This document shows, one piece after another, positions 27,427-57,734 of a stretch of DNA of 64,000 nt. Source of the DNA: Escherichia coli (GTDB taxonomy: Bacteria; Pseudomonadota; Gammaproteobacteria; Enterobacterales; Enterobacteriaceae); NCBI RefSeq assembly GCF_050920415.1, contig NZ_CP169309.1, one strand, 5' to 3'. The stretch's first letter is position 1; every line of letters starts with the position of its first letter. The position numbers and the translations under genes are program-made. The notes below the pieces were generated by a model that made no database searches, had not been told where the DNA came from, and worked only from the letters and a program-made list of their open reading frames with translations.

Positions 27427-29124
27427 TCAAAGCAATAACGTAGCCTGTGAGGCGACAGGGGGGCGTTGGTTAGGAATGTAAAATGCGATTTCCGTCCCAG
27501 GCTCCAGACGACGAATATGCAGCCCTTCGCCATATAACAACTTCACGCGGTGATGGACATTAAGCAGGCCAATTTTATTGCCTGGCATTTCATTCGCTTC
27601 GACCCGTTCAATCACCTTTGGATCGATGCCGTGCCCGGTGTCTCGCACCGCAATGCGTACCCGATTGCCGCACTCTGCAACGCTGATGGTGACAACGCCT
27701 TTTCCCTTACAAGGCTGAATACCGTGGACAATGGCGTTCTCCACTAAAGGCTGGATCAGCAGGCTGGGAATGTAGCAATTCACCTCTTCATCAATATCAT
27801 AGATAACCGTCAGCTTGTCGCCAAAGCGGGCCTGCTCAATGGCAATATAGTCTTTAATTTGGTACAGCTCTTTTTTGATATCGATTTGCTCATCGTCTTT
27901 TAATTCAATGTTATAGCGCAGATAACGCGACAGATTAAAGATTAACTGGCGAGCGGTATCCGGATTCAGACGGATCGACGATGAGATAGCATTCAGAGCA
28001 TTAAACAGGAAATGGGGATTAATTTTGCTTTGCAGAGCGCGAAGCTCTGCCTTATTTGCCATTTCACGTAGCTGCTCGGCGCGTGAAACCTCCAGTTGGG
28101 TGGAGATGATTTGAGACAGACCGACAGCCATTTCCTGTAATGACGAGGTGATCTGATGCGCGTGGCAGTAGTAAATTTTCAGTGTTCCTGTCACCACGCC
28201 TTTCTCCCACAATGGGATCACCAGCATCGAATGAATCTCTGGCGTGCGGTGGGCTTCATCATTGTTTTTAATAATGATTTTTCCGTAATTCATTGCCTGA
28301 CGCGTTGTTGGGCTAATGAAATCATCGCCATTCTGATAGTTGTGCTCACCTACGCCAACATAGGCCAGCACATGATCGGTGTTGGTAATCGCTACCGCAT
28401 CGGCGTGAATATCATCGCGGATAATTTCACAAACTTTGCGTAATGACTCGCTATTGACATGGCGAAACAGCGGCAGCGTTTTGTTGGCGATATCCAGCGC
28501 CAGCTTGGCCTGCCGCGCGGCGCTGGCCTCTTTTTCGCCCTCAACGCTTTGTACCAGCAACACAATAAAGCCGATACAAACGCTGCCGAGGATCATCGGA
28601 ATCCCGATTTTGGAGACGATATCAATCCCCAGTGCAGTGGTGGGCGCCCAGACAATCACCAGAATCATCGTCAACGTTTCACATAACATGCCACCGAGAA
28701 TACCGACGCGCCAGCGCTGTGCTTTGGGGATTTTCAGGTTGATCCAGCCTGATATGCAACCCGCGAGAATACTGGTGATAAAGCACGGAATTGCCGTCAC
28801 GCCGCCGATGTCAATTAAATAACGGTGAATACCCGCAATCACACCGGTAATGATGCCTACCCACGGGCCAAATAGAATTCCGCCTGACATCACCGCGATA
28901 ATGCGCACATTAACCAGCGAGCCTTCTACGGGCACGCCGGACCAGGTGCTGAACAGGGCGAACAGCGAGAAAATGGCGGTAACGGCGAGCAGCTCTTTTG
29001 GGGAGTGTGCCGACTTGTGCAACAGTTCGCGAAACAGGCGGATACGGATAAGAAAGAACAGGCAGATAAGCATTAACGCTGCCCGATCGAAGACCGCCAG
29101 CAGCATGTTGAATATTTCGTGCAC
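27427..29124 (-). CDS. ypdA: Sensor histidine kinase YpdA (LytS-like)
   Basis: 565 aa; N-terminal multi-TM sensing domain, GAF-like region, C-terminal HisKA_3/HATPase ([10 protein letters not shown]...GHGI). Confidence 0.9.
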
Positions 29125-29500
29125 GGGTGACTCTGAATAAGGATTAAACCTCTATGATAGGTAACCTGAAGGCTGATGACCAGCAGGCCGTTTTTGAGGA
29201 AAAACCACAATTTTAAAAGGGGATTGAAAGATAAATGGTGTATTAGCAATGCATCTCTTGATAATGCATATCTGTTTGGTAAATTTATTGAAATTATAAT
29301 GTTAATAGATTGAGTGGTAATTTTCTTGTTAGCGTAGATAAATTTCCTGTTTTTAAAGCGGAGTTCCTCATTTAAGGCTATTAACAAAAATGTTCTAAAA
29401 CGCTGGACAGACAGAAATTAATCAGGCTATTTTCAAAACAGCCACCATCGTGGCAGCGTCGCTCGGACGGTCCGGGCGCTCACGTTAATCTGAGGAAATT

Positions 29501-30739
29501 ATGGCTGACACTCGCCCTGAACGTCGCTTTACGCGTATTGATCGTCTCCCACCCTACGTTTTTAACATTACCGCTGAACTGAAAATGGCTGCGCGTCGGC
29601 GCGGCGAAGATATTATCGATTTCAGTATGGGTAACCCGGACGGTGCGACCCCGCCGCATATCGTCGAAAAATTATGTACGGTGGCCCAGCGACCGGACAC
29701 GCATGGTTACTCCACCTCGCGTGGTATTCCGCGGTTACGTCGCGCCATTTCCCGCTGGTATCAGGATCGTTACGACGTCGAGATCGACCCGGAATCAGAG
29801 GCTATCGTCACCATTGGCTCGAAAGAGGGGCTGGCGCATCTGATGCTGGCGACGCTGGATCACGGTGACACTGTACTGGTGCCTAATCCAAGCTACCCGA
29901 TTCATATTTACGGCGCGGTGATTGCCGGAGCGCAGGTACGCTCAGTGCCGCTGGTGGAAGGTGTCGATTTCTTCAACGAACTGGAACGCGCTATCCGTGA
30001 AAGTTATCCGAAACCGAAGATGATGATCCTCGGCTTCCCGTCGAACCCAACCGCGCAATGCGTGGAACTGGAATTCTTTGAGAAGGTTGTGGCGCTGGCG
30101 AAACGCTACGATGTGCTGGTGGTCCATGACCTGGCCTATGCCGATATCGTCTACGATGGCTGGAAAGCGCCGTCAATCATGCAGGTGCCAGGTGCACGCG
30201 ATGTGGCGGTAGAGTTCTTTACGCTGTCGAAAAGCTACAACATGGCGGGCTGGCGTATCGGCTTTATGGTCGGTAACAAAACGCTGGTCAGCGCGTTGGC
30301 ACGTATTAAAAGCTATCACGATTACGGTACTTTTACGCCGTTGCAGGTGGCGGCGATTGCGGCGCTGGAGGGAGATCAACAGTGCGTTCGCGACATTGCC
30401 GAACAGTACAAACGCCGCCGCGATGTACTGGTTAAAGGGCTGCATGAAGCGGGCTGGATGGTCGAAATGCCGAAGGCTTCGATGTATGTCTGGGCGAAAA
30501 TCCCGGAACCATATGCGGCCATGGGCTCACTGGAATTTGCCAAGAAACTGCTTAACGAAGCGAAGGTCTGTGTCTCTCCAGGGATTGGCTTTGGCGACTA
30601 CGGCGACACCCATGTTCGCTTTGCGCTGATTGAAAACCGCGATCGTATTCGCCAGGCGATTCGTGGAATTAAAGCGATGTTCCGTGCCGACGGTTTACTA
30701 CCCGCCAGCAGCAAACATATTCACGAAAACGCGGAATAA
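29501..30739 (+). CDS. alaC: Glutamate-pyruvate aminotransferase AlaC (YfdZ)
   Basis: 412 aa; PLP-dependent aminotransferase class I with [12 protein letters not shown] lysine motif. Confidence 0.9.
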
Positions 30740-30762
30740 ACACCATCGCCAGAAATGCAAAC

Positions 30763-30787
30763 AGGAGCCAGATGGCTCCTGTTTTTC
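30763..30787 (+). terminator. Rho-independent terminator after alaC
   Basis: aggagcca ga tggctcct hairpin followed by gttttt. Confidence 0.7.
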
Positions 30788-31229
30788 ATTGCACAGTTTG
30801 CTTTTAGATCATCAGGGCAAAAGTACCGGCCCAAACGATGACCATAAAAGAAATGCCCATAAAGAAATATTTCACTTTACATCTCTCCGCGTAATTACTG
30901 TTACGCCTGAATGACTTCATTACACCTGATACAGTGAGTTGACACCGGGCAAAACGACATTGAAAGTCCGTATTTTACCGTGGGCATCACCCCAGAATTC
31001 TGAGCTAAACTGCTCGAGACGGCGCTAATGTACGCCTAAAACTGAAACGAGACAAGAGGCATTTTCTTATTTACTTTTAGTAACTTACAGGTGTCTCATA
31101 TCGGCGACAGTTTAATTTCTGACGGTAATAATTAGAGATTCAGCGAAGGAAAAAACCTTAAGAAAAAAGCCATAAAAACCATGAGGTTAATATGGCTGAT
31201 TTGAGGAGGGAAAGAGTAGAAGCAATTTG

Positions 31230-32150
31230 TTAAATGTATAACGACGATTCTCCCACCGGGCGCGTTTTAAAGCGACGGTGGATCCAGAGGTACTGCTCAG
31301 GTGCGCGCATAATCTCTTTCTCGATAATCTTGTTCATATAGGCAGCGGCTTGATTTTCATCTGCCGGGTAGCCTTCCATTTCAGGGGTGATGAACAACCG
31401 ATATCCGCTGTAATCCGTTTTTCTGACCATCGTTACGGTCAACATGGCTGCGCCAGAGAGACGAGAGAGGACATAGGTGCCATTTGTTGTGGCAACATTT
31501 TCTACCGCAAAGAACGGTGCGAAGGAGCTACCTTTACGACCATAATCCTGATCGGGAGCAAACCATACGGCTTCACCTTTCTTCAGCGCACCGACAATAC
31601 CGCGCAGATTATTTCTGCCGATCATCGCTTTGTTAGAGCGCATGCGACCACGGGTCTGCACCCATTCCATCAGCTGATTATTATGTGGACGATAGGTGGC
31701 CATCATTGGCTGACATAGTCCCATCACGCGGCCGCCCAATTCCAGCGACATAAAATGGACGCCGACAACCATCACGCCACGATTTTGCAGTTGTGCGCGT
31801 TTGAGGTTATCCAGCCCTTCAACATCAAACCATTTACGTACGCGACTGTCGGGCCAGAACCATGCCATGCCGGTTTCTACCAGCGCCATGCCGAGTGAAC
31901 GAAAGTTTTCGGCAATCATCTTCTCGCGCTCTTCAGCAGAATGCTGTGGGAAACAAAGTTCCAGGTTCTTACGGGCGATAGATTCACGACGTTTCAGGAA
32001 TGGTCGCGCCATCGTGCCGATACGCGTGCCGAGAAAACAGAGAACAGGGTAAGGAAGCTGTACCCAAAGCCAGAGTACACCAAGCCCAAACCACGTGAGC
32101 CAGTAGCGAGGATGTAGAAACTCGCGGGAAAATTTGCATTTTGGAAACAT
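31230..32150 (-). CDS. lpxP: Lipid A palmitoleoyltransferase LpxP (Ddg)
   Basis: 306 aa from MFPKCKF (ORF track begins 22 codons upstream); HtrB/MsbB-family late acyltransferase. Confidence 0.85.
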   Translation of the reverse strand: MFPKCKFSREFLHPRYWLTWFGLGVLWLWVQLPYPVLCFLGTRIGTMARPFLKRRESIARKNLELCFPQHSAEEREKMIAENFRSLGMALVETGMAWFWPDSRVRKWFDVEGLDNLKRAQLQNRGVMVVGVHFMSLELGGRVMGLCQPMMATYRPHNNQLMEWVQTRGRMRSNKAMIGRNNLRGIVGALKKGEAVWFAPDQDYGRKGSSFAPFFAVENVATTNGTYVLSRLSGAAMLTVTMVRKTDYSGYRLFITPEMEGYPADENQAAAYMNKIIEKEIMRAPEQYLWIHRRFKTRPVGESSLYI

Positions 32151-32502
32151 AGTTACCTTCTGTAGATACAAATTGTTGTATCGCAGAAGATTCCATGTCG
32201 ACAGCGGTACACTCAATTGATTGGGCCATCATGTACGACAATGGTTCCTGTAAAGAGTGTAAAGACTAGTCAGGACATAACCACGAGGAGCATGAATGCG
32301 GTGCTTTTACTTTATCACTGGCTGACTGCTTTCAGCTACTGATTATTTATCGTGCAAAGTAAATATTTTTTCGCACATTACAGTCTTGCATTTAACGTGC
32401 TGTTTTCATTAATACTTAGCAAAAATTGCCAGAGGTTAAGGATTGTCTTACTATTAAAGTGACTGAAGTTACAGGTTTTTTAGCGCGGCAGGAGGTTGAG
32501 CT

Positions 32503-32745
32503 ATGATTTATTTATGGATGTTTCTCGCCCTGTGTATTGTCTGCGTAAGCGGATACATCGGTCAGGTACTGAACGTGGTCTCGGCGGTCTCTTCTTTCTT
32601 CGGCATGGTGATCCTCGCTGCACTCATTTACTACTTCACCATGTGGTTAACTGGCGGTAATGAACTAGTGACGGGGATATTTATGTTTCTTGCCCCGGCT
32701 TGTGGCTTGATGATTCGCTTTATGGTGGGGTATGGCAGGCGGTAG
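32503..32745 (+). CDS. yfdY: Small membrane protein YfdY (DUF2545)
   Basis: 80 aa, two predicted TM helices. Confidence 0.8.
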   Translation: MIYLWMFLALCIVCVSGYIGQVLNVVSAVSSFFGMVILAALIYYFTMWLTGGNELVTGIFMFLAPACGLMIRFMVGYGRR

Positions 32746-32821
32746 TAGTTCAGGATGGATCATTTGGGCAGGTGCTCACATCATCAACAGATATGATTGT
32801 TCACCTGCCATGTGACAGACG

Positions 32822-33097
32822 CTATCGCACAGGATGAATAAGATAATTCGCCTTTGTCGGAAAAGGGGGCGTGATGTCTTCTGTGAGATTTAATGGTGGC
32901 GCATCTTCTCTCATCTTAAACAAAATCGCCTGTGATGGTTGAAGTTTTGTAGAATGAGTTGTCGTCATCACTGACGTTTTTTCTGTCTCTTTATAGCTCG
33001 TCTCACTTCCGCCACCAGAAATGGAAAATGCAAAAACATTGCATGCCATAATAGAGACCAATAAAAATAAGCTAAAAAGCATTAAGTTTACTTTCAT
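32822..33097 (-). CDS. ypdI: Small exported protein YpdI
   Basis: 91 aa with signal peptide and lipobox-like MAC motif. Confidence 0.75.
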   Translation of the reverse strand: MKVNLMLFSLFLLVSIMACNVFAFSISGGGSETSYKETEKTSVMTTTHSTKLQPSQAILFKMREDAPPLNLTEDITPPFPTKANYLIHPVR

Positions 33098-33392
33098 AGA
33101 AAGTTATCCTGAGAATGGCTCACTGAGAACCTACGATGTTATGACTGTATTTACATTTAATTAATCAGTATTTACATCGATATAATAAATGACATCTCTT
33201 TGTGGTATATAAGAATAGTTCTCTGCGACAGGAAGCATATTCCTACAATTGTAAGACTAAAATACTTCTTGCGATAATAACTACAACTGTAAGATAACCC
33301 TTTCAAAATGACCGTTGCTCTCTGATTTCTCATTTCATGCTCACCCAATATGATGGCGGCGTTTTCTAAAACTGTTAAAGAATGAGGTAAGT

Positions 33393-34025
33393 ATGAAACG
33401 TTTAATTATGGCTACGATGGTCACAGCAGTTCTGGCATCTTCAACTGTATGGGCTGCTGATAATGCACCGGTAGCAGCACAACAGCAAACTCAGCAAGTT
33501 CAGCAAACCCAGAAAACGGTAGCAGCAGAGCGTATCTCTGAACAGGGTTTATATGCGATGCGTGACGTGCAGGTAGCGCGCCTGGCTCTGTTTCATGGCG
33601 ATCCGGAAAAGGCAAAAGAACTGACCAATGAAGCTTCCGCTTTGCTGTCAGATGACAGTACTGAATGGGCAAAGTTCGCTAAGCCAGGTAAAAAGACCAA
33701 TATCAATGATGACCAATATATTGTCATTAATGCATCTGTCGGAATTTCTGAGAGTTATGTAGCGACACCCGAAAAAGAAGCAGCGATAAAAATTGCGAAT
33801 GAAAAAATGGCGAAAGGGGATAAAAAGGGAGCAATGGAAGAGCTTCGCCTGGCCGGTGTTGGCGTAATGGAAAACCAATATCTGATGCCGCTTAAACAGA
33901 CTCGTAATGCACTTGCTGATGCGCAGAAACTGCTTGATAAAAAGCAATACTACGAGGCAAACCTGGCGCTTAAAGGTGCGGAAGATGGAATCATCGTCGA
34001 TAGCGAAGCACTGTTTGTGAACTAA
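33393..34025 (+). CDS. yfdX: Periplasmic protein YfdX
   Basis: 210 aa with signal peptide ([21 protein letters not shown]); first gene of the EvgA-regulated yfdX-frc-oxc-yfdV-yfdE cluster. Confidence 0.85.
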
Positions 34026-51699: not shown

Positions 51700-52614
51700 A
51701 TGTCAGCCAAAGTATGGGTTTTAGGGGATGCGGTTGTCGATCTCTTGCCTGAATCAGACGGGCGCCTACTGCCTTGTCCTGGCGGCGCGCCAGCTAACGT
51801 TGCGGTGGGAATCGCCAGATTAGGCGGAATAAGTGGGTTTATAGGCCGGGTGGGTGATGATCCTTTTGGCGCGTTAATGCAAAGAACGCTGCTAACGGAG
51901 GGAGTCGATATCACGTATCTGAAGCAGGATGAATGGCACCGAACATCCACGGTGCTTGTCGATCTGAACGATCAGGGGGAACGTTCATTTACGTTTATGG
52001 TCCGCCCTGGTGCCGATCTTTTTTTAGAGACGACTGACTTGCCCTTCTGGCGACATGGCGAATGGTTACATCTCTGTTCTATTGCGTTGTCTGCTGAACC
52101 TTCGCGTACCAGCGCATTTACTGCGATGACGGCGATCCGGCATGCCGGAGGTTTTGTCAGCTTCGATCCCAATATTCGTGAAGATCTGTGGCAAGACGAG
52201 CATTTGCTCCGCTTGTGTTTGCGACAGGCGCTACAACTGGCGGATGTCGTCAAGCTCTCGGAAGAAGAATGGCGACTTATCAGCGGAAAAACACAGAACG
52301 ATCGGGATATATGTGCTCTGGCAAAAGAGTATGAGATCGCCATGCTGTTGGTGACTAAAGGTGCAGAAGGGGTGGTGGTCTGTTATCGAGGACAAGTTCA
52401 CCATTTTGCTGGAATGTCTGTGAATTGTGTCGATAGCACGGGGGCGGGAGATGCGTTCGTTGCCGGGTTACTCACAGGTCTTTCCTCTACGGGATTAGAG
52501 ACCGATGAGAGAGAAATGCGACGAATTATCGATCTCGCTCAACGTTGTGGAGCGCTTGCAGTAACGGCGAAAGGGGCAATGACAGCGCTGCCATGTCGAC
52601 AAGATCTGGAATAG
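51700..52614 (+). CDS. cscK: Fructokinase CscK (PfkB/ribokinase family)
   Basis: 304 aa; PfkB signature (DSTGAGDAFVAG). Confidence 0.9.
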   Translation: MSAKVWVLGDAVVDLLPESDGRLLPCPGGAPANVAVGIARLGGISGFIGRVGDDPFGALMQRTLLTEGVDITYLKQDEWHRTSTVLVDLNDQGERSFTFMVRPGADLFLETTDLPFWRHGEWLHLCSIALSAEPSRTSAFTAMTAIRHAGGFVSFDPNIREDLWQDEHLLRLCLRQALQLADVVKLSEEEWRLISGKTQNDRDICALAKEYEIAMLLVTKGAEGVVVCYRGQVHHFAGMSVNCVDSTGAGDAFVAGLLTGLSSTGLETDEREMRRIIDLAQRCGALAVTAKGAMTALPCRQDLE

Positions 52615-52685: not shown

Positions 52686-53933
52686 ATGGCACTGAATATA
52701 CCATTCAGAAATGTGTACTATCGTTTTGCATCCAGTTACTCATTTCTCTTTTTTATTTCCTGGTCGCTGTGGTGGTCGTTATACGCTATTTGGCTGAAAG
52801 GACATCTAGGGTTGACTGGGACGGAATTAGGTACACTTTATTCGGTCAACCAGTTTACCAGTATTCTATTTATGATGGTCTACGGCATCGTCCAGGATAA
52901 ACTCGGTCTGAAGAAACCGCTTATCTGGTGTATGAGTTTCATCCTGGTCTTGACCGGACCGTTTATGATTTACGTTTATGAACCGTTACTGCAAAGCAAT
53001 TTTTCTGTAGGTCTAATTTTGGGGGCGCTCTTTTTTGGCTTGGGGTATCTGGCGGGCTGCGGTCTGCTTGATAGCTTCACCGAAAAAATGGCACGAAATT
53101 TTCATTTCGAATATGGAACAGCGCGCGCCTGGGGATCTTTTGGCTATGCGATTGGCGCGTTCTTTGCTGGCATATTTTTCAGTATCAGTCCCCATATCAA
53201 CTTCTGGTTGGTTTCGCTATTTGGCGCTGTATTTATGATGATCAACATGCGTTTTAAATATCAGGATCAGCAGTGCGTAGCGGCAGATGCGGGAGGGGTA
53301 AAAAAAGAGGATTTTATTGCAGTTTTCAAGGACCGAAACTTCTGGATTTTCGTCATATTTATTGTGGGGACGTGGTCTTTCTATAACATTTTTGATCAAC
53401 AGCTCTTTCCTGTTTTTTATGCAGGTTTATTCGAATCACACGATGTAGGAACGCGCCTGTATGGTTATCTCAACTCATTCCAGGTTGTACTCGAAGCGCT
53501 GTGCATGGCCATTATTCCTTTCTTTGTTAATCGGGTAGGGCCAAAAAATGCATTACTTATCGGTGTTGTGATTATGGCGTTGCGTATTCTTTCCTGCGCA
53601 CTGTTCGTTAATCCCTGGATTATTTCATTAGTGAAGCTTTTACATGCCATTGAGGTTCCACTGTGTGTCATTTCCGTCTTCAAATACAGCGTGGCAAACT
53701 TTGATAAACGCCTGTCGTCGACGATCTTTCTGATTGGTTTTCAAATTGCCAGTTCGTTGGGGATTGTGTTGCTTTCAACGCCGACTGGAATACTTTTTGA
53801 CCATGCAGGTTACCAGACGGTTTTCTTCGTAATTTCGGGTATTGTCTGCCTGATGTTGTTATTTGGCATTTTCTTCCTGAGTAAAAAACGTGAGCAAATG
53901 GTGATGGAAACGCCTGTACCTTCTGCAATATAG
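52686..53933 (+). CDS. cscB: Sucrose:H+ symporter CscB (MFS, LacY-like)
   Basis: 415 aa, 12-TM oligosaccharide:H+ symporter family. Confidence 0.9.
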   Translation: MALNIPFRNVYYRFASSYSFLFFISWSLWWSLYAIWLKGHLGLTGTELGTLYSVNQFTSILFMMVYGIVQDKLGLKKPLIWCMSFILVLTGPFMIYVYEPLLQSNFSVGLILGALFFGLGYLAGCGLLDSFTEKMARNFHFEYGTARAWGSFGYAIGAFFAGIFFSISPHINFWLVSLFGAVFMMINMRFKYQDQQCVAADAGGVKKEDFIAVFKDRNFWIFVIFIVGTWSFYNIFDQQLFPVFYAGLFESHDVGTRLYGYLNSFQVVLEALCMAIIPFFVNRVGPKNALLIGVVIMALRILSCALFVNPWIISLVKLLHAIEVPLCVISVFKYSVANFDKRLSSTIFLIGFQIASSLGIVLLSTPTGILFDHAGYQTVFFVISGIVCLMLLFGIFFLSKKREQMVMETPVPSAI

Positions 53934-54456: not shown

Positions 54457-54657
54457 TTACCCATTGGCGCGGCTTAAGAGCTTATTTTTGAATTCACAAT
54501 GGTCACGATATAACCATCTTGCTCGCCCGTGGATAACTTTGGCTTTTGGCAGGTCGCCGGACTTAATCCGGTCATAGATGAAGGTTTTACCAAAGCCAGT
54601 ATCGGCCATGATGAATTTCAAATCAACCAGTGAATCAGGCTGTAGTTCGTGTTGCAT
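54457..54657 (-). CDS. torI: Excisionase / recombination directionality factor TorI (AlpA-like winged helix)
   Basis: 66-aa product MQHELQPDSLVDLKFIMADTGFGKTFIYDRIKSGDLPKAKVIHGRARWLYRDHCEFKNKLLSRANG matches my recollection of KplE1 TorI. Confidence 0.8.
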   Translation of the reverse strand: MQHELQPDSLVDLKFIMADTGFGKTFIYDRIKSGDLPKAKVIHGRARWLYRDHCEFKNKLLSRANG

Positions 54658-55227: not shown

Positions 55228-55896
55228 TTAGCCACGGTTTACCTCCTGAGGCGGTTCTGCTGCAAAATACGCAATACCTTTATCCCAGATGGATTTAATG
55301 GTCGTCCACGTGACTGGTACTTTAATTTCAATCCGCCCGCTACCGTCACAGGTATCGCAATCATCATCGCCAAAGCATTCCGGGCAGCTGATAAACGTAG
55401 TTTCTGAAAATTCACCGGATAGCGCACCCTTAGCGCCGTTCTCGGCTGTTAGTCTCTTCGGCACCATGACCCAACCATCCGGAGTTACCGGAGAGTTGCC
55501 CGACAGCTCGTTCAACTTGTAAGTTTGGCTTACAGGTTCGGCTTCCAGTTCTGCTATGCGTTTTTTTGCTGCTTCCAGCTCAACACGCAGCCTCCCAACC
55601 GTTAGTGCAATATTCTCGTTCTCCTGGTCGCGGTGTTTGATGTATTGCTGGTTTCTTTCCCGTTCATCCAGCAGCGCCTGCACTACTTCAGGGTTGAAAG
55701 CTGCGATATAACGAGCGTTGTTCTCTGCGTTTTTCTGTCCATCAAAGCCGGTCCATTTGATAACGTCTTCACATCGTTTATCACCGGGCGTATGCACCGC
55801 ATACGTACCAGTACCCGGTGAAATAAATGCGGACCATTCGCCTTGTGTTGCCTTTTTTGCTATCTCACGCAGTGCCTGATAGTCAATCTTGCTCAC
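55228..55896 (-). CDS. Ea22-like prophage protein with DnaJ-type CxxCxGxG zinc-finger pair
   Basis: Start placed at the GTG preceded by AGGAGG (the ORF-track ATG would overlap the upstream gene by about 100 nt); coiled-coil middle; CPECFGDD and CDTCDGSG motifs. Confidence 0.55.
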   Translation of the reverse strand: MSKIDYQALREIAKKATQGEWSAFISPGTGTYAVHTPGDKRCEDVIKWTGFDGQKNAENNARYIAAFNPEVVQALLDERERNQQYIKHRDQENENIALTVGRLRVELEAAKKRIAELEAEPVSQTYKLNELSGNSPVTPDGWVMVPKRLTAENGAKGALSGEFSETTFISCPECFGDDDCDTCDGSGRIEIKVPVTWTTIKSIWDKGIAYFAAEPPQEVNRG

Positions 55897-56200
55897 TGGC
55901 TGCCTCCTTTGCTGGGCTTTCGAACTTCTGAGTGGTTGTATCAAACTCAAGCAACTTAACCACGTCATCAAACAGGACATAATCGCCATCAGAATCTTCA
56001 GTCATGTCAGCGCCACAATCCTGACCGAACGAGTCACAACCATCCATATCAAGCTCGTATCGCTTGAGTTTTGCGATATTTGATAAATTCAGCGCCAGTA
56101 CAGCAAGGTCATAAACCTCGTCAGCGGTATACCCGGCACCATGCCCATACATTTCAATGCGGGATATGATTTCTTCTACACGTTGTTTTGTGATCGTCAT
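55883..56200 (-). CDS. Hypothetical acidic prophage protein (105 aa)
   Basis: ORF translationally coupled to neighbours. Confidence 0.5.
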   Translation of the reverse strand: MTITKQRVEEIISRIEMYGHGAGYTADEVYDLAVLALNLSNIAKLKRYELDMDGCDSFGQDCGADMTEDSDGDYVLFDDVVKLLEFDTTTQKFESPAKEAASEQD

Positions 56201-56742
56201 TTTTGCTCACCTCCCTGTTCTTCCAGAAAAATACGCATAGCCTCAAGCATCTCTTCGGTGTCATACGGTGACAACTTGTCACGCAGGATGTGCTCAATGC
56301 TGTTAATGAACTTGCGGATTGCTTTGCGTTCAATTTCAGCCAGGAAAGCATCGGTGGCTGGGGTGTCTGATTGCAGAGACTTTGCGCGATAGTCATTCCA
56401 CCCTCTTGCATACATGGGATTAACTTGCACTCCATCTTTTACGCAATATGCCTGCCCTCCACGGTTGATAACATTGATTTCGTCCATAGCGCCAGCCTTC
56501 AGCCCCGCATTCTCCGCCGCCAGCGCCGAAAACTTCTCGTGTGCCAACTTAACAGCTGCATCAGCCTGCTTAATTGACTCAATCGCTTTCTGGTGGTCTT
56601 CGTACAGAGCCGAAATCTTGGCCTCCGCTTCAGCAAATTTACGCACCAGATATTCAGCGTTTGTTTCGTTAACCTTTAAATCTCGGGGGATGCATTTACC
56701 TTTCAGAAATCCATCCATCTCAATTAGTGACATTTGTTTCAT
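56197..56742 (-). CDS. Hypothetical prophage protein with coiled-coil region (181 aa)
   Basis: ORF; start overlaps stop of upstream small ORF (ATGA). Confidence 0.5.
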
Positions 56743-56903
56743 TTCTTCCCACTCCGCAACATCGCGTTCAGATATTTGTTTTGATTCACTGAAGGAAAAG
56801 AATTTCTCTTAAGCAATTCCTCTCTCGATGGCATTGGCTTTACGCGTTGGCGAATAATCATTTCTGCCGGAAGAATTCCGGGATTGTATGCAAGTCCTCT
56901 CAT
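56739..56903 (-). CDS. Small ORF (54 aa), not in the supplied track
   Basis: ATG preceded by AAAGAGGA RBS, fills the gap between flanking genes, stop overlaps next start (ATGA); product [54 protein letters not shown]. Confidence 0.4.
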
Positions 56904-56919
56904 GGTAAATTCCTCTTTG

Positions 56920-57234
56920 TTAATTTATTCGTATGCCTGTTCTCTCTTCATCAAGTTTTTTTAGCTTGTATCGCATAGCTCTTACTGAATAAATTGAGCG
57001 GCAGGTTGCAATTGCTATTTCTTCTGCGGAGAACTTACCGAAAAGTGATACTTCGGCTCTTGTCCAGCGTCTTCCACGAAGTCGGCTAACAATGTCAGCT
57101 CCAATCCTTGTTGCTTTCGCCATTACTGCTTTTTCAGTCCTTTCCAGTTTTTCAGCGATAACTTCAACTGGCATTGTCGCCGCCACTTCGCGCAAGAAAT
57201 CGACTTCCCATTTCTCCCATGGAGTCTTTTTCAT
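56920..57234 (-). CDS. Hypothetical prophage protein (104 aa)
   Basis: ORF in the operon. Confidence 0.5.
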
Positions 57235-57245
57235 AGGCGATACCG

Positions 57246-57734
57246 TTATTTGATAAGAAGTGAAGGTTTCCCAACTTTGAGTTGAGCGCCGGGGATATTT
57301 ATTCCTGCTTTTAGTTGGTGTTTGATTGCCAGTTTGTCGGCTTTAATTGTTGTTTCAAACTCAACGTATTCTGGAGGAAGGGCGCTTGAGTCGATGATTT
57401 CTACAGTTTCTGACGGTTTGCGGATTGTTACCTGGTGAATACCTGCTCGAATCTTTTTCTTTCCAACCATTTCAAGCGATGACGCTATATACGTCATAAT
57501 GCTATCAATCTTATTTTGAATTACTGCTGCTCTTTCATTCAGTGACTTTGCCTCTTCCTTGAGGCGTTCAGCATAACCAGACTCATTTTTAATAATGGCA
57601 AGAAGTTGCTCTATTTTATCGGTAAATTCTCCTTCCATGCCTTCTATTGTGTCAGCAATCATCTCTGGTTCTAAATCTGAATCCATCAATTTTGCGTATT
57701 CATTGGCAATTTCATACAGTTTGCTCACTGGCAA
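57246..57734 (-). CDS. Siphovirus Gp157-family protein
   Basis: 162-aa acidic coiled-coil protein immediately downstream of recT; family call from recall of recT-linked Gp157-like proteins. Confidence 0.5.
   Translation of the reverse strand: MPVSKLYEIANEYAKLMDSDLEPEMIADTIEGMEGEFTDKIEQLLAIIKNESGYAERLKEEAKSLNERAAVIQNKIDSIMTYIASSLEMVGKKKIRAGIHQVTIRKPSETVEIIDSSALPPEYVEFETTIKADKLAIKHQLKAGINIPGAQLKVGKPSLLIK

Follow-up and report, generated by a model that had tools for sequence, protein, structure and literature searches.

The open reading frame of 54 codons at 56739..56903 (minus strand) of the analysed Escherichia coli DNA, a stretch of 64,000 nucleotides from contig NZ_CP169309.1 (the window), is almost certainly a real gene of the DUF2737 family. 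The ORF list, the sequence and matches to PF10930 and phrog_1117 identify its 54-aa product as a homologue of P22 orf56 and HK97 gp38. The best explanation of the frame, and a very probable one, is that a lambdoid prophage carries it as a small functional gene. The frame is under purifying selection.

Coding evidence for the 54-codon frame

On the minus strand the frame starts with ATG at 56903-56901 and continues through 54 sense codons to TGA at 56741-56739. A Shine-Dalgarno sequence, AAAGAGGA, was read at 56911..56918 on the same strand, 7 nt (ATTTACC) from the ATG; this element, as GAGGAATTTACCATG, is kept in the alignment with HK106, CUS-3 and P22. The upstream 104-aa ORF ends with TAA at 56922-56920, leaving a spacer of 16 nt before the ATG, and the downstream 181-aa ORF begins with ATG at 56742-56740. 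The bases ATGA at 56742-56739 (minus strand) are common to both frames. Between the flanking ORFs lies a gap of 177 nt (56743-56919), which is filled by the 54-aa ORF. The frame, its ATG, the ribosome-binding site, the TGA/ATG overlap and the 177-nt gap described in the original prediction were all present in the sequence on this strand. The product had been described as basic and proline-containing, and indeed has a mass of 6.24 kDa, a pI of 11.0, 11 K+R versus 3 D+E, a net charge of about +8 and five prolines.

For comparison, 94 related loci were collected, comprising 80 IMG/VR contigs and annotated records which include P22, BTP1, SEN22, SI23, HK106, HK544, an Stx2a phage, ENT47670, CUS-3, Jersey and Tsm2; the 80 IMG/VR loci were chosen as closest relatives, and all locus counts are biased accordingly. 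The downstream ATG was found 4 nt inside the DUF2737 stop in 87 of the 94 loci, and judging from this arrangement translational coupling of the two genes is possible. Together with the window, the loci contained 63 distinct DNA alleles of the gene, and the frame was intact in 93 of the 94. Among the 55 distinct alleles of 165 nt, segregating sites were distributed over codon positions 1, 2 and 3 as 7, 6 and 25, which differs from an even split with a chi-square of about 18 (p ~1e-4), and the mean pN/pS was 0.12. This comparison of synonymous and non-synonymous changes, proposed beforehand as a check of the frame, clearly favours coding. Values of dN/dS against the BTP1, SEN22 and SI23 homologues were between 0.16 and 0.22. 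Against P22 orf56, where synonymous sites are saturated (pS 0.76), pN was 0.17. Protein relatives with 40-55% identity are carried by Cronobacter, Serratia and virulent Jersey-like siphovirus phages.

Codon 49 (56757-56759) encoded L, W, F or C (TTG, TGG and other codons) among near-identical alleles. Residue 49 was the sole clearly polymorphic amino-acid position of the protein in the E. coli clade, and its codon lies 15-17 nt 5' of the ATG of the downstream gene.

The only disrupted frame was that of CUS-3 (CP000711, 2496-2584), which has a 77-nt frame-shifting deletion inside the gene, apparently between the short similar sequences GGACTTGC and GGAATTGC. The remnant reads MRGLA*, with the rest of the C-terminal part in another frame, and is unannotated in the record. 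A frame broken in a close relative with its flanks kept had been named as the result that would speak against a gene, and this was observed once. With 93 of the 94 sampled loci intact, it points to a dispensable gene that can be lost and does not speak against coding.

The frame could instead be no gene at all, having arisen by chance or lying in DNA kept as an RNA element, as a recombination linker or only for ribosome binding at the next gene, which is extremely unlikely. It is short, it is disrupted in CUS-3 and its last codons extend into the stretch where ribosomes probably bind for the downstream gene. Against this reading stand the excess of third-position changes, the low pN/pS, the protein similarity kept where synonymous sites are saturated, and protein relatives in other genera with identities as low as about 40%. 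An Rfam scan of 55500-58000 likewise gave no match at E up to 1. The plus-strand ORF 56414..56812 overlaps just 74 of the 165 bases of the frame, under half. When the gap was shuffled 20,000 times, an ORF filling it in the frame fixed by ATGA appeared in 0.47% of shuffles, and in 0.075% when the Shine-Dalgarno core was also included. The non-coding reading is thereby practically refuted.

Family membership and annotation

The 54-aa protein matched PF10930 (DUF2737) with 110.5 bits (cut-off 25; E 3.4e-32), residues 1-53 aligning to positions 1-53 of the 53-position model, and phrog_1117 with 128.2 bits over residues 1-54 of 54. The original prediction had stated that the product contained no recognisable domain; this was wrong, because the ORF matches PF10930 over its full length and also PHROG 1117. 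The Jersey-type sister family phrog_4684 matched residues 18-50 of the protein. All 30 diverse relatives scanned matched PF10930, and the protein, which consists of this single domain, carries every nearly invariant column of the family (E29, R33, N34, S35, F36, N42 and L45). Members of PF10930 occur in the early region of enterobacterial phages and prophages, and the gene occupies the same position in P22, BTP1, SI23, HK106, HK544 and SEN22.

The protein encoded by P22 orf56 (NP_059593) is 77% identical to the 54-aa protein. P22 orf56, HK97 gp38 and BTP1 gp26 share with it full-length homology, the same size, the Shine-Dalgarno context and a stop codon overlapping the next start, and in the PL operon they likewise come directly behind the recombination module. 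Differences were observed in the C-terminal tail, which is SGKK here but KDKCNR in P22 orf56, and in the upstream neighbour, which is a 104-aa HTH-like gene in the window but abc2 in the P22-type relatives.

The gene, its family and its position are already catalogued, and PGAP annotates the gene routinely. P22 orf56 and HK97 gp38 are annotated in the GenBank records J02471 and NC_002371; J02471, which covers the erf and abc genes of P22, already contains P22 orf56 as 'ORF-56; putative'. Records of HK phages describe their own copies as similar to HK97 gp38. At least 1000 public contigs encode the identical 54-aa sequence under the name 'DUF2737 family protein', the name used in every sampled RefSeq record, and of 5426 complete E. 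coli genomes 1263 (23%) contain the 165-nt DNA. Among 1.8 billion proteins, 61 cluster representatives (50% identity) matched the family at E 1e-3 or better; by this sequence search the DUF2737 family is small and restricted.

The gene had been reported as unannotated. This holds for some phage records, and does not hold for RefSeq, where PGAP annotates it. In Gally (OV696608, 4382-4558) the DUF2737 gene is uncalled, so that an identical gap of 177 nt appears in the record; its frame is nevertheless intact and encodes a protein of 98% identity. In ENT47670 (NC_019927, 2495-2650) the gene is also uncalled, with an intact frame and a protein of 56% identity. Such omissions probably explain the impression of an unannotated gene.

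Members of the family in virulent Guernseyvirinae (Jersey-like phages, Kagunavirus), for example gp67 of Salmonella phage Jersey and the protein of Serratia phage Tsm2, had only the C-terminal core motif, joined to an unrelated N-terminal half (PHROG 4684). In Tsm2 the DUF2737 gene is followed by an overlapping gene whose product contains an ATPGPW motif and, by eye, resembles Ead/Ea22-like proteins. Longer 'fusion' proteins with a DUF2737 domain were considered as a clue to function, but on inspection of their sequences seem to have arisen by deletion or frameshift in decaying prophages.

Operon context and mosaic neighbours

Gene order and predicted signals place the DUF2737 gene in the early leftward (PL) operon of a lambdoid prophage, which bears out the claim that it belongs to the early operon of a prophage; the operon around this genuine coding gene is tightly packed. 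A promoter-like sequence, TTGACA-17-GATACT, was found at 60991-60963 and is the putative PL, on the strength of its consensus match only. The N antiterminator gene (60331..60714, minus strand; Pfam N_peptide, E 1e-15) stands at the head of the operon and is followed by SieB (59770..60309), on the opposite strand to the operon, Kil (59013..59165) and a 103-aa ORF between Kil and RecT. The recombination module (57246..58623) comprises RecT (57712..58623, minus strand), named by PGAP in the near-identical locus L001, and a Siphovirus Gp157 / Gam-like gene (57246..57734, minus strand; Pfam Sipho_Gp157). Next to it lies the 104-aa HTH-like gene (56920..57234, minus strand; PHROG 'transcriptional regulator, D5-like'). 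Downstream of the DUF2737 gene follow the 181-aa EaE-like gene (56197..56742, minus strand; phrog_614) and, in order, a 105-aa ORF, an Ead/Ea22-like gene (55228..55989), a 114-aa ORF and an AlpA-like gene (54457..54657). A scan of 56700-57600 on the minus strand showed no promoter- or terminator-like site.

Two ORFs, of 145 aa and 123 aa (61216-62011, minus strand), are located in the interval from the CI-like repressor gene (62019..62732) to a terminator-like site (61210-61189) ahead of the putative PL promoter. In lambda this slot is occupied by rexA/rexB. The two ORFs had no Pfam match and just a marginal PADLOC match (CorA-like, E 0.004); by analogy of position they could be an exclusion or defence pair expressed in the lysogen. 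At the other end, homology to related prophages ends at about 54,36x, where several IMG/VR prophage contigs stop too. Beyond it are host genes for sucrose utilisation, i.e. a cscB-like permease (52686..53933) and a cscK-like fructokinase (51700..52614). Neither an integrase gene nor a tRNA (ARAGORN) was found between the AlpA-like gene and the host DNA.

In all lambdoid relatives fetched with flanks, the DUF2737 gene was the first after the recombination module, which consists of erf-abc1-abc2 in P22, BTP1, SI23, HK106 and HK544 and of recT or an exonuclease with other genes in the window, SEN22 and ENT47670. Directly upstream, abc2 was found in 87 of the 94 loci with a fixed 10-nt spacer, a figure that is biased because the 80 IMG/VR loci were picked as closest relatives. 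Only four loci (the window, L001, Gally and SEN22) had the 104-aa gene with its 16-nt spacer, and homology between the two types of loci begins exactly at the Shine-Dalgarno sequence. The gene downstream of DUF2737 also differs, having an unrelated N-terminus in P22, BTP1 and SEN22, and in Jersey and Tsm2 the DUF2737 gene lies within a run of small early genes. Since both neighbours differ across phages, DUF2737 behaves as an independent mosaic unit of one gene.

In a minority of phages the 104-aa gene takes the exact place of abc2, and the Gally record labels its product 'Anti-RecBCD protein 1, similar to P22 Abc1'. The protein was tried as an Abc1 or Abc2, but BLASTP revealed no similarity to either P22 protein; it also weakly matches a winged-helix model. 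From these sequence comparisons, the label may be unfounded.

The neighbourhood raises the reading that DUF2737 is a cofactor of the recombination/anti-RecBCD module, modulating RecBCD or another host nuclease together with Abc2 or its replacement. It would fit the prevalence and fixed spacing of abc2, the kept order erf-abc1-abc2-orf56 in the five P22-type phages, and the window, SEN22 and ENT47670, in which DUF2737 still comes right after recombination genes. The phage of the window, however, is without Abc2 and has in its place a protein dissimilar to Abc1 and Abc2, the mosaic junction runs exactly between the upstream gene and the Shine-Dalgarno sequence of DUF2737, and the Jersey-like virulent phages carry DUF2737 among small early genes with no recombination gene adjoining. 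A cofactor role is unlikely.

The downstream EaE-like protein has an invariant N-terminus of about 36 aa, while the remainder is hypervariable and coiled-coil-like, with differing C-termini. In 87 related loci the gene occurred in 79 distinct versions of 92-301 aa, which PGAP names variously as hypothetical, YfdS family, ead/Ea22-like, HNH endonuclease or DUF5405. By sequence it looks like a recombination hot spot at which C-terminal modules are swapped behind a fixed N-terminal handle. DUF2737 might accordingly be imagined as a partner or chaperone that binds this invariant 36-aa N-terminus, the more so as the two genes overlap by ATGA and the DUF2737 gene and the downstream N-terminus form a conserved block of DNA despite differing upstream sequence (query 386-801; Stx and HF4s phages). 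This is very unlikely. In an AF2 model of a linker fusion, a weak test owing to the shallow alignment, the DUF2737 block had means of 45-59 versus 62-75 alone; moreover, the downstream N-terminus is unrelated in P22, BTP1 and SEN22, and the neighbours differ in Jersey and Tsm2.

Structure and proposed function of the DUF2737 protein

Alignment of the 30 diverse members showed a variable N-terminal half and a nearly invariant C-terminal core, P-M-P-S/T-R-E-E-L-L-x-R-N-S-F-x-S-V-N-x-N-K-Y-L. The AF2 monomer model had a pLDDT of 67.8, a pTM of 0.26 and three short helices; this low confidence may reflect the shallow alignment and not disorder. Foldseek comparison of the model with the PDB yielded no match with E below 6, and no relative of the protein was found in NCBIfam or the PDB. 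PADLOC-DB, which holds defence proteins and no anti-defence proteins, gave no match at E up to 0.1. A likeness to ribosomal protein bL33 (one PDB-wide match, E 0.015) was attributed to chance, as the Pfam model Ribosomal_L33 was matched by none of the 30 members at E up to 10. A literature search on DUF2737, P22 orf56, HK97 gp38 and STMMW_03422 returned nothing relevant and no experimental paper. The sequence is absent from the supplements of the accessory-gene screens of Silas et al. and so was not among the genes tested; in their supplementary neighbourhood table DUF2737 is entered only as 'no known function'.

On infection or induction, N antitermination would allow transcription of the gene from PL. 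Translation would use the gene's own Shine-Dalgarno sequence, and ribosomes terminating at ATGA would help to initiate the downstream gene. The product would be a 6.2-kDa peptide of pI 11 with little stable fold of its own. Its nearly invariant C-terminal segment would bind a host protein or a nucleic acid, in either case a macromolecule conserved across the Enterobacteriaceae, and its role would be a non-essential early accessory function in the general manner of the small proteins of the lambda exo-xis region, by which early development is shifted (PMC8614690, PMC3824215). This general mode, a dispensable early accessory peptide acting through its C-terminal segment on a conserved enterobacterial target, is proposed tentatively and has somewhat less than an even chance of being correct.

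Precedents for such peptides are known from the same phages. Kil acts on FtsZ and CIII on FtsH; both, like Abc2, are short early lambdoid peptides that act stoichiometrically on one host protein. Abc2 acts on RecC (PMC9836394). Kil, CIII and Abc2 are encoded in the same operon as DUF2737, are of about 50-100 aa and are dispensable; no sequence or fold similarity to DUF2737 was found, and the analogy is one that we infer. The lambda proteins Orf60a/DUF1317, Orf63/DUF1382, Orf61 and Orf73 are likewise encoded between the recombination genes and xis/int on the earliest PL transcript, and with DUF2737 they share the size class of 55-75 aa and a non-essential character. They belong to different Pfam families, and DUF2737, in contrast, is also present in virulent phages. 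Lambda orf60a, orf61, orf63 and orf55 were tried as relatives and rejected: with the family HMM, the best match among six-frame ORFs of lambda 28800-33500 had 4.2 bits (E 0.22). DUF2737 resembles the exo-xis proteins in its genomic niche and in its likely way of working, and not by family.

Genes of the lambda exo-xis region and their small proteins are reported to influence lysogenisation and induction (PMC3824215, PMC8614690), and a regulatory role of this kind has been proposed for Orf60a and Orf61. DUF2737 might similarly bind nucleic acid as a small basic regulator and shift the lysis-lysogeny decision, since it has a pI of 11 with a net charge near +8 and holds the place of lambda orf60a, directly behind the recombination genes. 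The absence of any sequence relation to the four lambda genes weighs against such a regulator, and no DNA-binding fold was recognised in the Pfam scan of 30 members or by Foldseek. Virulent Jersey-like phages, for which there is no lysogeny decision to make, carry the gene as well. We regard this reading, too, as improbable.

A resemblance to the P22-type head-to-tail adaptor gp4, whose C-terminal arm inserts between portal protomers (PMC9728967), was also considered, with DUF2737 as a mimic of this portal-binding arm. The family profile matched residues 104-147 of P22 gp4 with E 0.19 PDB-wide, and with 11.4 bits (E 0.005) among six-frame ORFs of a partial P22 genome (28 of 41.7 kb). Both sequences have P-x-P-S-R and N-S-F-x-x-[LV]-N-E at equal spacing, with six residues between them. 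Profile-profile comparison (hhalign), however, gave a probability of 0.9%, and P22 gp4 itself accounted for every PDB match. Within the gp4 family (PF11650) the matched S and F positions are variable, and the shared residues are not those conserved in gp4, whose invariant Y-P-x-R-M-P-x-G-S-G-N is mostly unshared. DUF2737 also occurs in phages with unrelated virion modules (HK97-like, Stx and Jersey-like). The resemblance was rejected, and mimicry of gp4 is hardly credible.

Another reading is that DUF2737 constitutes an unrecognised family of short, motif-based inhibitors that block a conserved DNA-repair or defence protein of enterobacteria and are encoded beside recombination/anti-RecBCD modules. 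A peptide of about 27 residues would fold on binding its target. A dispensable peptide with a weak fold of its own and a near-invariant C-terminal motif would fit, as would the place of the gene after abc2 or recT and its presence in both temperate and virulent phages. We consider such an inhibitor rather unlikely.

For genome scans, the omissions of the kind seen in Gally and ENT47670 make it likely that the same apparent gap will recur. As an early phage gene, DUF2737 itself is very common and clearly subject to purifying selection; it is found in temperate lambdoid as well as in virulent Jersey-like phages.
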